From the sequence record NC_004928.1: DNA of 64,000 nt; one strand, given 5' to 3'. Shown here piece by piece: positions 34,182-42,941 of this stretch. The notes under the pieces were generated by a model that did not search any database, was not told where the DNA came from, and saw nothing but the letters and a program-made list of their open reading frames with translations. Position numbers and translations under genes: made by a program. Source of the stretch: Escherichia phage RB69. Numbering within the stretch: position 1 is the first letter of the stretch; the number at the start of each line of letters is the position of its first letter.

Positions 34182-34422
34182 CTCGGTCCCATGATTTGGC
34201 CATTAATTCGGACATAAATTCTTCAATGCGCGTTTCTTTAGATGGACTTTCACTATTAGAGACCGCAAGTTTGTAATCTGCAATAGGACGGAACAAATCA
34301 AGGTCCATATCAAGGTCGTCTTTGATTTGTTCTTCAGGTACATCTGTATCATACGTATACAGATAACTATCAAGTGATTCTGATTTAACGTAAATTGCTA
34401 TACTCATCTCAAATTCCTGCAT
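34171..34422 (-). CDS. hypothetical protein
   Basis: 83-aa acidic ORF. Confidence 0.4.
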   Translation of the reverse strand: MQEFEMSIAIYVKSESLDSYLYTYDTDVPEEQIKDDLDMDLDLFRPIADYKLAVSNSESPSKETRIEEFMSELMAKSWDRDDE

Positions 34423-34901
34423 TCGGTAATAAAACGTTCAACTTCATTATTCTTGGCCTTTATCTTGTCTTTACGTTCCTGTAAACTACTTTTAACAAGA
34501 TTAATAATGATGCCTACAGTACCTCCACCAATAATACCACCAATAATACTTACAATAGTAGATGCTAATAAGATAGCGATAATATCTGGTACAGCAAAGG
34601 CACTTACTTTAGTACTAAAAAACCATACCGACGGTACAAATATAATCCATCCTGTTATCCATTGGCACTTATTGAAAAACTTTTCAAGCTCAGCTTGGGT
34701 TGTTCGTATTACTTCATCGATAGGTTGATATCCATTAATGTATCTGTTCACGATAATACCTGCTGGTTTGTCGATTTTAAATGCTTGACAATGGTGTTTC
34801 ACTAAGTAGGATGGACATCCTGTCCAATCTACTGAATAGTATGAAATACCTTCGTCGCCACCGTCCATGTTTGACCAGTGAATTTTCTGTATCATTACCA
34901 A
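34404..34901 (-). CDS. membrane protein with conserved C-terminal ERFITECR tail
   Basis: 165 aa; C-terminal hydrophobic helices; shares the C-terminal tail family (see findings). Confidence 0.5.
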   Translation of the reverse strand: MVMIQKIHWSNMDGGDEGISYYSVDWTGCPSYLVKHHCQAFKIDKPAGIIVNRYINGYQPIDEVIRTTQAELEKFFNKCQWITGWIIFVPSVWFFSTKVSAFAVPDIIAILLASTIVSIIGGIIGGGTVGIIINLVKSSLQERKDKIKAKNNEVERFITECRNLR

Positions 34902-35582: not shown

Positions 35583-35888
35583 TTATTTTCCTCGACATTC
35601 TTTAATGAAATTTTCTAGATTGGTAGATTCAATAGCTTTTTTACGAGCTTCTGCGTGTTCTTCTTCAGACAATTTACGTTTATAATTGACCCAGACATTA
35701 TGGTCGAAACTAGTCGTGGCATATAATAACAATGCTCCAACGAATAGCAAAAACGGCGATAAGAATACAAAACCAGGAACACCATCCATATCGTAAGCCT
35801 TTTGTAATACTGCAACAGAAAGGGCTGCGTAAAAAAGTGATGCAAATATTGTTAAAAGACCAATTCGGTTGGTTTCGCCTAATTTCAT
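35583..35888 (-). CDS. small membrane protein with C-terminal ENFIKECR tail
   Basis: 101 aa, two hydrophobic helices. Confidence 0.5.
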   Translation of the reverse strand: MKLGETNRIGLLTIFASLFYAALSVAVLQKAYDMDGVPGFVFLSPFLLFVGALLLYATTSFDHNVWVNYKRKLSEEEHAEARKKAIESTNLENFIKECRGK

Positions 35889-35957: not shown

Positions 35958-36914
35958 TTATTTGAAAGGTTTTACCATATGGAAATTTTGTTTGAAACGT
36001 TTGACGTAATCGTCATGTCCTAAACTTTGGTACATACTTACTACTTTGCTGTAGTTTTCCCAGGCATACTCACGGAACCAACCAGAGGTGATGCTTGTAC
36101 AGACTTTTTCCAATGCCATCATAAAACTGGCTTCAGGGTTAATTTTAAAGTCATTAGGAATTTGAGAACGTTCTAATGCTAGTACACATGATTCTTCGTA
36201 TACACCAGCCAATTTGACCATTTCTGGTAATGATTCGAACTTCTCGCGTGAGGTCATGACTTCAGAGCCGTCTTTCATATAAAATGTATACGCTGGACGG
36301 TCTGTTAGTGCAATGGCTTCATGAATAGTATCATGGTCATATGTATAGATGTCATCTTTAAAGAACGCACTTTTAGAAGTGTCAAGAACCGGGTGAGCAT
36401 AGTTCAAGGTTTCTTTCTGGCGTTTCAGCATAATTTCAGTAAGTTCATCGTTCAGTGTAACACCTTTACCACGAAGATACTGAATATGGTTCATAGTCTT
36501 TAAAAAGAATGGATTATTTTTCTTGAAACGATGAGACATCTTAATTGCAAGACATATCTCAGGAGTTGCCCAGTAAAACCCGTTCAAACGGTCTTTAGTC
36601 AAATTTTTCTTGGCGTATTTTAAAAGGTCATAAGAAGACGTGAAATCTTCAGGAGTGAGTTCACCGATTAATTCACGGACATTAGTGATTGCCGGAACAA
36701 TATATGCTTCAAAATGAGTTTCGCGTCCATTATGGAAGCATTTGAAAACTTGGACATCAGGGTTATCTTGGTGAACATATACACCCATCATTTGATTTTT
36801 GAATGCATTCCAAGAACATTGGTCCGCAATAAAGTCCCAATCGCTATTTTTGATAGCGCTAGAATCAATAAGACCGTGATAGTGAAGTGCACGAGAACCA
36901 ATAACCAACATCAT
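35958..36914 (-). CDS. hypothetical protein (318 aa); weak nucleotidyltransferase-like or HD-like motifs
   Basis: N-terminal GSRALHYHG...SDWDF and later DHD; assignment tentative. Confidence 0.45.
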   Translation of the reverse strand: MMLVIGSRALHYHGLIDSSAIKNSDWDFIADQCSWNAFKNQMMGVYVHQDNPDVQVFKCFHNGRETHFEAYIVPAITNVRELIGELTPEDFTSSYDLLKYAKKNLTKDRLNGFYWATPEICLAIKMSHRFKKNNPFFLKTMNHIQYLRGKGVTLNDELTEIMLKRQKETLNYAHPVLDTSKSAFFKDDIYTYDHDTIHEAIALTDRPAYTFYMKDGSEVMTSREKFESLPEMVKLAGVYEESCVLALERSQIPNDFKINPEASFMMALEKVCTSITSGWFREYAWENYSKVVSMYQSLGHDDYVKRFKQNFHMVKPFK

Positions 36915-37244: not shown

Positions 37245-37442
37245 TTAGCAAGAATAACTAGATGATACCCAGCCTTGAACAGTAATACTATTATTTGATA
37301 ACGAGATTGCGTCCTGGAGATTCAGACCTGCGTTATCTTCAATCCATAATGTAACTTCTTCGCGTTCTTCTGTTGCAATTTGGAACAGGTTTTCCAGAGC
37401 AGCTACTGCCGTACGTACAGCACAATCTAATTCGCGAGACAT
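37245..37442 (-). CDS. small protein, member of a tandem mosaic trio
   Basis: 65 aa; C-terminus GWVSSSYSC shared with 37452..37724. Confidence 0.45.
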   Translation of the reverse strand: MSRELDCAVRTAVAALENLFQIATEEREEVTLWIEDNAGLNLQDAISLSNNSITVQGWVSSSYSC

Positions 37443-37451
37443 ATTGTTTCC

Positions 37452-37724
37452 TTAGCAAGTGTGAGAAGATGCGACCCAACCACCAGTTTCGAGGCTCAGG
37501 TTGTAGTCGTATTGGTAAACGTCAGCCCATTCAGCATAGCCGTTTTTTGTACAACGTTCAAGATCGGCTTTAAGATGTCCGGGTGAATGATAGGTTCCAC
37601 CCATACCATAAGCTGGGTACAAGTCGAATGTTGTGTTTTGTTTATCAGCAATTTCTTTGGCAGCCTCAATAGCTGCATAGATTTTTGCTACAGCTTCAGT
37701 CAGTTCGGTTTGTTCTTTAGACAT
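37452..37724 (-). CDS. small protein, member of a tandem mosaic trio
   Basis: 90 aa; YGMGGTYHSPG motif shared with 37825..38040 and GWVASSHTC tail shared with 37245..37442. Confidence 0.45.
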   Translation of the reverse strand: MSKEQTELTEAVAKIYAAIEAAKEIADKQNTTFDLYPAYGMGGTYHSPGHLKADLERCTKNGYAEWADVYQYDYNLSLETGGWVASSHTC

Positions 37725-37824
37725 AATGATTCCTTAGCACAACGCAGGAGACGAAACCCAAGCACCTTCAGTAATAACGTAACCATTACCTTCACGCTTA
37801 ACATCGCCACCATTATTTTCAATT

Positions 37825-38040
37825 TCATTTTTCATACCACTGGGATACGATTTCACCCTTAGGATAATAAGTACGACCGCTACCATAATCACCTACAGAA
37901 AATGATACGGCATATTGGTCTGCGATCTTTGTTGCTTCTTCTTCGATACGTTCAGCTTGATTCAGAAGTTTATAAATTGCATCTGAAGCGGATTTGGCAT
38001 CATTAAATTCTGGTACTTTAATTTCGATAATCTTACTCAT
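37825..38040 (-). CDS. small protein, member of a tandem mosaic trio
   Basis: 71 aa; YGSGRTYYPKG motif. Confidence 0.45.
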   Translation of the reverse strand: MSKIIEIKVPEFNDAKSASDAIYKLLNQAERIEEEATKIADQYAVSFSVGDYGSGRTYYPKGEIVSQWYEK

Positions 38041-38396
38041 TTTCTACATTCCTTAATAAAGTTTTCTATTGTTTCATTTTCACGTTTAGCTAGGAGTTCA
38101 TTATAACTAATCATTTGAGAAGCGTAAACCTTTTTATTTTTCTTGTTATGGTTTATAAAATCGTAGTAAAAATAGACTACAGTACAAAATGATGCGATGG
38201 ATGCAAAGGCTTGGGTATACCGTAAGTCCTGCCATTGGTCTGTGAATCCGCCAGTGTTTCCTATAAATCCTAACACAACGCCGTCAATAAGAAATCCAAC
38301 TAATCCAAAGGCAAATCCCATGCCAATACTCATAATAAAAATTAGAATGTTCTCACCAAGAGAAGGCCATACGGTTAAGAGTTGAGGCTTTTGCAT
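38037..38396 (-). CDS. membrane protein with C-terminal ENFIKECRK tail
   Basis: 119 aa, glycine-rich TM helices. Confidence 0.5.
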   Translation of the reverse strand: MQKPQLLTVWPSLGENILIFIMSIGMGFAFGLVGFLIDGVVLGFIGNTGGFTDQWQDLRYTQAFASIASFCTVVYFYYDFINHNKKNKKVYASQMISYNELLAKRENETIENFIKECRK

Positions 38397-38770
38397 CTTA
38401 TTTCCTTAACGAATTCCATAGCTTCTTCATATTCATACTTTTTAACAGCTTCATCATACTGAGCTTGGGCTTTTGCGCACTGAACTTTCCACTCACGAAC
38501 TCGAGCTCTGTGATGACGGCCTTGGTGCCAATATCCTACCCAATTAATAGGCATTAATAAAAACGGTACAATAAGTGGTGCGACGAACATTAATGAAAAT
38601 GCTGCATCAGACGATATAACTTCACTAGAATCTAAAACAGCTCCTATAATCATAAAGATTAAAAATGCTAAAGCTAAAATAGGGCCAAATAGTACTTCAT
38701 TAGGAATTAATTTACGTTTGTATTCGTATGCCCAGGGCTTACTTGGCATGTATAGGGTTGGCTTTGACAT
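38375..38770 (-). CDS. membrane protein with C-terminal EFVKEIRCK tail
   Basis: Track ORF 38375..38800 trimmed to MSKPTLY. Confidence 0.45.
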   Translation of the reverse strand: MSKPTLYMPSKPWAYEYKRKLIPNEVLFGPILALAFLIFMIIGAVLDSSEVISSDAAFSLMFVAPLIVPFLLMPINWVGYWHQGRHHRARVREWKVQCAKAQAQYDEAVKKYEYEEAMEFVKEIRCKSLNS

Positions 38771-39362
38771 ATTCTCTACATTCCATAATAAATTGCTCAA
38801 GGATTAAATTGTTAGTGAAATTAGGACTAACAACCATAGTTTCATAAAGCGCATCAATAGCACTTAAAGCATCAACTCTTTTAAGCAAAGGCTTGCCTTC
38901 ATACATAGTTTCAGAATCGATGATTAACGTAAAGTAATATTTTTTATTATCGACTAGAACTTCTGTATCGATATAAAACATATTAGACCTCAGAAGCTTA
39001 TCTCTAAAACCATAATAATCTTCAGAGCGTTCGCTGATATATTCCCATTCAGTGTTTAAACAACAAACAGACCATGTAGGAGCAACGAAATCAGTGAATC
39101 TAATATCATGGTCTGCAACTAGTTTAGCAATAGCTCCGATATCATGAATCATAATACCTGGGGCTAATAAAGATTTTCTGCTATGGCTAGCCGTTTTCTC
39201 GGTGGTCTCATAAGAAGACGACCAGTACCATTTACGTCCGGTTGCAACATATCGTAATGAATCAACTAAAGACGTAGGTGGATTTACCTTATCTCGGAAC
39301 TCTTCAAACATTGAGTCAATATCATTATTTTGGTTTCGCATGTTAACTCCTTTATTATCCAA
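38739..39362 (-). CDS. hypothetical protein with C-terminal EQFIMECREY tail
   Basis: 207-aa ORF. Confidence 0.5.
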   Translation of the reverse strand: MDNKGVNMRNQNNDIDSMFEEFRDKVNPPTSLVDSLRYVATGRKWYWSSSYETTEKTASHSRKSLLAPGIMIHDIGAIAKLVADHDIRFTDFVAPTWSVCCLNTEWEYISERSEDYYGFRDKLLRSNMFYIDTEVLVDNKKYYFTLIIDSETMYEGKPLLKRVDALSAIDALYETMVVSPNFTNNLILEQFIMECREYVKANPIHAK

Positions 39363-39390
39363 AAGGAGGACCGGAGTCCTCCGTATTATT

Positions 39391-39999
39391 TTATTTCAAA
39401 GAGTTAATATATTCTTGTACATCAGCAGAAGTGGTTTCGACACCAGCTGGAGTGCCATTGAACGTTTCAACACGAGTCAGAGTGTCTTCGATATCAACCT
39501 TAGTCAGTGCAGCGATTTCAATTACATCATCGGCCGTAGAGATACCAAGGGCATTGGCTGCTCGAGTTTCACGAATGTATTCGAGTTTGATTGCCAGATT
39601 CTGACGAGCATCATCAAGTTCAACCACCTTACGAGCAATTTCAATTCGCATAGCGGCATACCCGTCAGCTTTTGTATTAAGTTGTTCGGCAGTTCGACGA
39701 TACAGAAGACCAAGCTTAGCATGCATGGTAACATCTTGTCCTTCAGCCAAGAGCTTACGAATTTCACGTTCCTTAGAAGCGGCTTGCTTGTTCTTTTCAT
39801 TAACAAGTTCGCGAATACGTTTTTCTTCATTAATAGATTTAACAGAAGCCGTTTTTAGTTCTTTGATTTGGGTAATCAACTTATCTGCAGCTGCGTTATA
39901 CTGTTCTTCGACAGTCAGATTTTTAGCCATAGCAGTACCCAGTTTAGTGCGGATGAATTCAACAAGTTTCTTCAGTGTGTTCATATTATTACCTTTCAA
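39391..39999 (-). CDS. coiled-coil protein, possibly PspA/IM30-like
   Basis: about 200 aa, predominantly helical heptad-rich sequence; similarity to PspA is impressionistic. Confidence 0.45.
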
Positions 40000-40013
40000 T
40001 TGGTGGTTTATTA

Positions 40014-40054
40014 TCCAACGAGAGCATTATACTCTGCTCTCAAGAGTTTGTAAA
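40014..40054 (-). promoter_or_regulatory. early promoter cassette, near-duplicate of 10461..10501
   Basis: CCAACGAGAGCATTATACTCTGCTCTCAAGAGTTTGTAAAT. Confidence 0.45.
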
Positions 40055-40282
40055 TTATTTTTTAATCAAATTGACATAAAACTTGGCGTCTTCGGGGTGC
40101 ATGCCTTCGCAGTATTCTTCAACCATGAACTTCTTAACAGCTTCATAAGGACCACTCAGATTAAGCTCAGTTGTCCAGAACTTGGAATCTTGGACTGAAT
40201 CGATACGAACTTCAGGGTGTCGGTTGCGAATAACTTCTTCGGTGTATTCATAATCAACGACATCAATACTAACTTTAGCCAT
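40055..40282 (-). CDS. hypothetical protein
   Basis: 75-aa ORF. Confidence 0.45.
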   Translation of the reverse strand: MAKVSIDVVDYEYTEEVIRNRHPEVRIDSVQDSKFWTTELNLSGPYEAVKKFMVEEYCEGMHPEDAKFYVNLIKK

Positions 40283-42782: not shown

Positions 42783-42861
42783 TGGTCGAGACAGAAGGAT
42801 TCTAACCTTCAACCTACGGATTAGAAGTCCCCGTTGCTCTATACAATTGAGCTATGCCTCG
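42783..42861 (-). tRNA. tRNA-like gene, Arg(UCU)-like anticodon context with non-canonical loop
   Basis: 7-bp acceptor stem, D-stem GCUC/GAGC, T-arm GAAGG-UUAGAAU-CCUUC, encoded CCA; anticodon arm only folds with a 9-nt loop. Confidence 0.4.
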
Positions 42862-42867
42862 AATATA

Positions 42868-42941
42868 TGACCCAGACCAGATTCGAACTGGTAACCTTTC
42901 CCTTATGAGGGGACTGCTGCTAACCGTTGAGCTACAGGGCC
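42868..42941 (-). tRNA. tRNA-like gene, CAU anticodon context (Met/Ile), imperfect D-arm
   Basis: T-arm ACCAG-UUCGAAU-CUGGU, acceptor stem with one U-U mismatch, loop CUCAUAA. Confidence 0.35.

Follow-up and report, generated by a model that had tools for sequence, protein, structure and literature searches.

The e.6 locus of phage RB69

The window analysed here is a stretch of 64,000 nucleotides of Escherichia phage RB69 (NC_004928.1), and the gene under study within it is the counterpart of e.6 of phage T4, a gene known since the T4 genome was sequenced. An earlier note, made from the letters of the window alone, had pointed to an open reading frame (ORF) at 39391..39999 on the minus strand, had likened its product to PspA/IM30, and had compared the small genes that follow it with the pspA-pspB-pspC layout. 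The ORF was confirmed, and its match to PHROG 1203 (E 5e-87) together with matches in phage records indicated that it is a real gene. By tblastn, e.6 was matched in 1108 of 50,697 phage records, and the hosts of these phages included Escherichia, Klebsiella, Shigella, Aeromonas, Enterobacter, Yersinia, Citrobacter, Erwinia and others. T4 e.6 (69312-69905, 197 amino acids; NP_049742) was 88% identical to the window protein over all 197 residues, and an RB51 gene, also 88% identical to the window protein, carries the annotation e.6.

Every homolog begins with M-(N/S/A)-(T/I)-L-K-K, and the start of e.6 is therefore more likely the ATG at 39984, which yields a protein of 197 amino acids, than the TTG at 39999. 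A Shine-Dalgarno sequence, GAAAGG, precedes the ATG. Plus-strand ORFs that overlap e.6 had no PHROG match and were treated as spurious. The gene and its flanking signals, in the order of transcription, are:

40026..40054, minus strand: sigma-70-type early promoter of e.6, TTTACA-17 nt-TATAAT, matching at 11/12 positions
39391..39984, minus strand: e.6 ortholog, 197 amino acids, PHROG 1203, with an amphipathic helix a0, a hairpin of helices a1 and a2/3, and short C-terminal helices
39365..39382, minus strand: intrinsic terminator-like stem-loop, GGAGGAC-TCCG-GTCCTCC followed by TTTT, beginning 9 nt past the e.6 stop codon

The promoter was the top sigma-70-type match within 34.5-43 kb of the window. 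With a promoter and a terminator of its own on either side, e.6 has the appearance of a self-contained early unit. For T4, the RNA of e.6 is assigned to the early class and the protein to the middle class (PMC9697503 supplement), and a terminator past e.6 is listed in the T4-like phage UFV13 (PMC5931544). The gene is also bracketed by a short repeat, TTGGATAATAAA, which was found at 40000-40020 (minus strand) ahead of the e.6 start and again at 39350-39365 (minus strand) past the terminator. The pair may relate to the promoter/stem-loop cassettes that shuffle genes in the accessory regions of T4-type phages.

All real genes around e.6 lie on the minus strand. The region is bounded by tRNA-Arg and tRNA-Met (42783-42941) on one side and nudE/e on the other, and an Rfam scan found nothing beyond these two tRNAs. 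Its counterpart is the 'e.2-e.8' accessory region of T4, where e.6 occupies the same site, between the tRNA cluster and nudE/e and upstream of e.5-e.4-e.3. Over 4 kb around e.6, the sequence was 96-98% identical to that of phages of the genus Mosigvirus, among them Escherichia phage ChristianSchoenbein and Shigella phage JK42.

Remote homology of the e.6 protein to PspA and Vipp1

Kinship between the e.6 protein and PspA/Vipp1 (PF04012) was assessed with two profiles, a narrow one (A1) built from the close relatives of the window protein and a broad one (A2) built from 40 diverse family members. When the broad profile was compared with all PDB sequences, the top eight matches were Vipp1 or PspA, with E values of 3.2e-5 to 1.1e-3, and the alignments were collinear, residues 1-146 against 1-147. 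E. coli PspA (4whe) was a weak match to this profile (E 1.1). The narrow profile retrieved the same Vipp1/PspA entries from the PDB at E values that were not significant (1.2-2.6).

Two distant phage members of the family, P0063 and P0057, provide a link to the curated Pfam family. Their scores, 39.0 and 35.1 bits, both exceed the PF04012 gathering score of 33.9, and their residues 6-146 align to model positions 2-143. The narrow profile matched the same two proteins over their full length, at E 6e-17 and E 3e-20, respectively, and a transitive chain thus leads from the window protein to PspA_IM30. The N-termini of distant members also read like those of the cellular family, MSIFQRLKSIF...SVSPKERF compared with MGLFDRLGRVV...AEDPEKV in Vipp1.

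The e.6 protein is mostly helical, and its matches might have arisen from helical composition only, in which case it would be a generic coiled-coil hairpin unrelated to PspA, such as an adaptor, structural or scaffold-type protein. In an hhalign comparison, the broad profile matched Synechocystis Vipp1(1-152) with a probability of 91.7%, an E value of 7.9e-7 and a score of 44.6, at ~21% identity. Reversed Vipp1 scored 13.8 and 100 shuffles of it scored 11.6±1.9, with a maximum of 16.5. The native score lies far above these controls, and coiled-coil composition therefore does not explain the match. In addition, the alignments run collinearly from residue 1 onward, all of the eight top PDB sequence matches come from a single family, two family members clear a curated Pfam cut-off, and the gene lies in an early accessory region and not in a structural module. 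We therefore regard an unrelated coiled coil as highly improbable.

Predicted structure of the e.6 protein

An AlphaFold2 (AF2) model of the e.6 protein, with a mean predicted local distance difference test score (pLDDT) of 76.8, was nearly all helix and formed a long hairpin. Helices were predicted at residues 2-22, 25-80, 86-145, 166-174 and 186-196. The first three resemble in their boundaries helices a0, a1 and a2/3 of PspA, and the layout expected of PspA/IM30, a0 followed by a hairpin, is present in the model. The last two, short C-terminal helices, had low to moderate pLDDT, and the profile alignments end at ~146-151. Helix a0 was amphipathic, with a hydrophobic moment (muH) of 0.43 (0.57 in Vipp1) and a net charge of +4. 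A Foldseek search of the PDB with this model returned Vipp1 or archaeal CdvB2 as the top 11 matches (E 5.6e-4 to 0.08); among these top hits, Vipp1 was represented by nine entries titled Vipp1 and by two chains of 6zvr, a joint Vipp1/PspA entry.

The e.6 protein thus shares with PspA/Vipp1 a collinear profile match across a0-a3 (residues 1-146), an N-terminal amphipathic helix and a hairpin of ~55+60 residues. At 197 amino acids it is similar in size to PspA, though shorter than E. coli PspA (222 amino acids) and than Vipp1 (267-277 amino acids), to which it is ~21% identical in the profile alignment. Unlike PspA and Vipp1, it carries in its C-terminal third a conserved motif of its own that does not align to a4/a5; the last 50 residues follow the family-specific pattern LGI..DV...VDVD..L..V.TF.G...T..D...YL.SLK.

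The family also differs from cellular PspA and Vipp1 in that, to judge from the contigs fetched, it appears to be phage-encoded only. Five of the six family members with fetched contigs sit beside phage markers (uvsX, gene 41 helicase, DNA ligase, thymidylate synthase and Phage_g100). The sixth contig had no recognisable domains and hence no cellular marker genes.

These results bear out the helical coiled-coil protein of roughly 200 residues that the earlier note had described, and they show its resemblance to PspA/IM30 to be true remote homology, on which the profile searches, the transitive Pfam chain, hhalign and Foldseek concur. Where that note had allowed that a PspA/ESCRT-III profile match might be lacking, family profiles did match Vipp1 and PspA. 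A published study agrees: Gendre et al. (2022, PMC9409062) identified PHROG 1203, in the form of Gp_125 of Kuttervirus SeF3a, as a PspA homolog by HHpred against pdb70.

Genes downstream of e.6 and the pspABC comparison

Three genes follow e.6 on the same strand, and the order e.6-e.5-e.4-e.3 is kept in T4:

38739..39341, minus strand: e.5 homolog, 200 amino acids, soluble, PHROG 2607, 47% identical to T4 e.5, with a C-terminus containing EQFIMECREYVK
38375..38770, minus strand: e.4 homolog, 131 amino acids, two transmembrane segments, PHROG 2604, 55% identical to T4 e.4
38037..38396, minus strand: e.3 homolog, 119 amino acids, membrane protein, PHROG 2330, 35% identical to T4 e.3

No hydrophobic segment was present in e.5. 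In e.3, one segment (15-48) reached the hydropathy threshold and a second stretch appeared likely by eye. The basic C-terminal tail of e.4 reads ...EFVKEIRCK..., and its basic residues suggest that it is cytoplasmic; the C-terminal tail of e.3 ends in ...ENFIKECRK. Pfam, NCBIfam and PADLOC scans of the single e.6, e.5, e.4 and e.3 proteins returned sub-threshold coiled-coil noise only and no defence-system match, and none of e.5, e.4 and e.3 had a Pfam match to PspB (PF06667) or PspC (PF04024) at E<=1. For e.5, homolog searches gave a shallow alignment, the AF2 model was poor, with a pLDDT of 57.9, and a profile search of the PDB found no match. The best Foldseek match of e.5, to a small alarmone synthetase, was not significant (E 0.04, probability 0.13), and this assignment was rejected. 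The labels 'sulfurtransferase' and 'host specificity protein' that some phage records give to e.4 and e.6 had no rhodanese or other Pfam support and were dismissed as annotation noise.

The locus resembles E. coli pspABCDE in that two small inner-membrane proteins are encoded within 1.5 kb after a PspA-like gene. In contrast to the E. coli operon, a terminator and a soluble 200-residue gene intervene, e.4 and e.3 are unlike PspB and PspC, and the arrangement is lost in distant phages. Bacterial psp genes further differ in that e.6 has no pspF, pspB or pspC partners and no sigma-54 control, and instead has an early sigma-70-type promoter. The small membrane proteins that the earlier note had seen downstream are indeed encoded there, by e.4 and e.3, but the gene adjacent to e.6 is the soluble e.5.

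Neighbours of e.6 vary outside the Tevenvirinae. In Erwinia phage IT22, the gene after e.6 is e.5-like (PHROG 2607, E 3.8e-4). Aeromonas phage Aes012 and Citrobacter phage Margaery carry e.6 in the nrdD-nrdG region among other neighbours, and in three metagenomic T4-like contigs it is found downstream of both uvsX and the gene 41 helicase, with DNA ligase following in two of the three, the two long enough to show it. Synteny is thus limited, and the proposed echo of pspA-pspB-pspC is therefore unsupported as a conserved module; the terminator after e.6, the soluble e.5 that comes next and the lack of PspB or PspC matches also speak against that layout.

The flanks of the window's e.6 region differ from those of T4 in two respects: nudE is separated from e.3 by ~3.5 kb of additional small genes, and a Frd.3-like gene lies upstream of e.6 where T4 has e.7. 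This Frd.3-family gene, of 75 amino acids (40055-40282, minus strand; PF05798, E 1.3e-38), is directly upstream of e.6 and far from any frd gene.

A putative PspA-like role at the membrane

We consider it probable, though well short of certain, that e.6 is the Mosigvirus ortholog of T4 e.6, that it belongs to a divergent, phage-restricted clade of PspA/Vipp1 within the ESCRT-III superfamily, that it forms an early unit with a putative PspA-like membrane role, and that e.5, e.4 and e.3 are not equivalents of PspB and PspC. A function in membrane stress or lysis timing, as the earlier note had proposed, is reasonable as a putative function of e.6 alone.

Several results weigh against this interpretation. 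The window protein alone had no match to PF04012 (PspA_IM30) at E<=1 in the Pfam scan, and a search of 1.84 billion proteins with the narrow profile returned 45 relatives only, mostly of ~200 residues with some fragments, and no cellular PspA; the link between e.6 and PspA is therefore remote. The C-terminal third of the protein (~150-197) falls outside the PspA alignments, and the hydrophobic moment of a0 is no more than moderately unusual, as 7% of shuffles reach its muH of 0.43. Knock-down of T4 e.6 was scored 'Not Fit' in CRISPRi-ART (PMC11879866 supplement), which we read as no measurable effect on fitness under laboratory conditions. Knock-downs across e.2-e.8 were likewise 'Not Fit', and the same 2025 supplement still lists T4 e.6 as PHROG 1203 of 'unknown function' (PMC11879866). 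The functional literature searched for T4 e.6 yielded its expression class, the terminator listing and this 'Not Fit' score only.

T4-type phages shut off host transcription, and because of this the infected cell cannot induce its sigma-54-dependent Psp response. Under a PspA-like role, e.6 would be made soon after infection and would attach to the cytoplasmic side of the inner membrane by way of a0, the basic and amphipathic helix at its N-terminus. It would polymerise through the a1/a2-3 hairpin in the manner of PspA and Vipp1, and the polymer, by analogy, may limit proton leakage. The protein would thereby act as a Psp-like effector while the host cannot induce its own psp operon. [quoted passage not shown]

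The anti-Abi hypothesis was proposed for PHROG 1203 in PMC9409062, so that both this hypothesis and the PspA link of PHROG 1203 were already published in 2022, in silico and for another phage family. SeF3a Gp_125 and the window protein have in common the PHROG, the inferred homology and the functional hypothesis. Kuttervirus SeF3a is a phage of another genus, and the passages of that study consulted draw no link to T4 e.6 and describe no experiment. The present analysis adds an explicit link to T4 e.6, tests the match against coiled-coil bias and rejects the analogy with pspABC. In the phage-shock-protein (PSP) and ESCRT-III literature examined, phage-encoded PspA was undiscussed, save for viral lineages in one uncommented figure.

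A different use of the same homology would be mimicry. The e.6 protein might target the host Psp machinery, by binding PspF or PspB/PspC or by co-polymerising with host PspA, and so silence or poison the response. Helices a0-a3 of E. coli PspA carry the determinants of PspF binding and membrane binding, and this is the region to which e.6 is homologous; moreover, E. coli, Klebsiella, Yersinia and Aeromonas, all hosts of the matched phages, carry Psp systems. Conservation of a specific PspF interface is nevertheless doubtful, given the ~21% identity to Vipp1 and the weak match to 4whe (E 1.1), and at the 'EDP' junction the window protein has Val in place of Pro. Repression of psp would also be largely redundant because host transcription is shut off in any case. 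We consider such mimicry unlikely.

The protein might also remodel the inner membrane for a phage-specific purpose, such as assembly or replication sites or vesicle formation, and not for repair. The ESCRT-III superfamily includes active remodellers, PspA and Vipp1 can tubulate or engulf lipid, and the family is kept in many large virulent myophages. Against this, the loci examined showed neither a partner ATPase nor any other recognisable remodelling factor close to e.6, and e.6 appears dispensable in the laboratory. Remodelling of this kind appears very unlikely.

If the PspA-like role of e.6 is correct, the best-studied of lytic phages has an ESCRT-III-type membrane guardian of its own. Such a guardian would explain how the membrane is kept energised until programmed lysis though host stress responses are off, and it would add a counter-measure against membrane-depolarising abortive-infection defences. 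The proposal for e.6 is directly testable by T4 genetics.

A C-terminal tail motif shared by genes between e.6 and nudE

Genes that lie in the stretch from e.6 to nudE and are otherwise unlike one another end in a common peptide, F-(I/V)-x-(E/D)-C-R. It was found in the genes at 34404-34895, 35583-35888, 38037-38396 (e.3) and 38739-39341 (e.5), all on the minus strand, with the tails ERFITECRNLR, ENFIKECRGK, ENFIKECRK and EQFIMECREYVK, respectively, and a variant, EFVKEIRCK, was found in e.4 (38375-38770). Four of the eight six-frame occurrences of the motif in the window fall within these tails. The motif is also present in T4 e.3, e.4 and e.5, in the genes after e.6 in IT22, and in an unrelated 288-residue gene right after e.6 in Aes012. 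The copies differ in their choice of synonymous codons, which suggests selection on the peptide. The same stretch also holds the Shine-Dalgarno sequence and the spacer of the overlapping gene that follows, and the motif might be either a docking peptide or a gene junction under constraint.

The motif bears on whether e.6-e.5-e.4-e.3 could form one Psp-like module, in which the membrane proteins would sense or recruit e.6, perhaps through their F-I/V-x-E-C-R tails. The gene order is common to the window phage and T4, the motif recurs in e.3, e.4, e.5, the e.2-like genes, IT22 and the unrelated Aes012 gene, and the tails appear cytoplasmic, to judge from their basic residues. Such a module is hard to reconcile with the terminator between e.6 and e.5 and with the lack of similarity to PspB or PspC. 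In Margaery and in two of the metagenomic contigs (L006 and L008), the genes around e.6 are different ones, and a strict tail motif is absent from the 4-6 kb fetched on each side. Overlap with the translation signals of the next gene also offers an alternative reason for conservation of the motif. We therefore find a single module decidedly unlikely. Equally speculative, and in our judgement improbable, is the fuller proposal that T4-like phages own a minimal 'phage shock' system, in which an ESCRT-III-like polymer of e.6 would be recruited by the e.2-like, e.3, e.4 and e.5 proteins through a cytoplasmic C-terminal F-I/V-x-E-C-R docking helix and would guard the PMF against Abi pores, superinfection and early holin firing.

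A tail of this type was also recognised in T4 outside the annotated genes. An unannotated 53-codon frame at ~67472-67633 (minus strand), between e.2 and nudE, ends in NFITECRKLK, which matches the tail of the window's e.2-like protein of 163 amino acids (PHROG 2203). The match of T4 e.2 to that protein is confined to the N-terminal part (30% identity, residues 1-53), and against the PHROG 2203 profile T4 e.2 covers positions 1-103 of 166. It may thus be that a longer gene has been truncated or split to give T4 e.2.

Other small genes near e.6

A protein of 318 amino acids with DUF7277 and DUF7275 domains is encoded at 35958-36914 (minus strand). It is absent from the e region of T4, and a homolog with 48% identity lies 1.6 kb upstream of e.6 in Aes012.

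At 37734-38040 (minus strand), a gene of 101 amino acids that is intact in Shigella phage JK42 is split in the window into ORFs of 71 and 52 amino acids. The cause is a single extra T near 37836, where the window reads GTGGTATGAAAA and JK42 reads GTGG-ATGAAAA. The split reflects a pseudogene or a sequencing error, or possibly a frameshift site. The adjacent small ORFs at 37245-37442, 37452-37724 and 37734-37892 (minus strand) have similar C-termini, GWVSSSYSC, GGWVASSHTC and GAWVSSPALC, respectively, and PHROG 899 was matched both by the ORF at 37452-37724 and by 37825-38040, the N-terminal fragment of the split gene. By these similarities, the three ORFs at 37245-37892 look like a small paralogous family.

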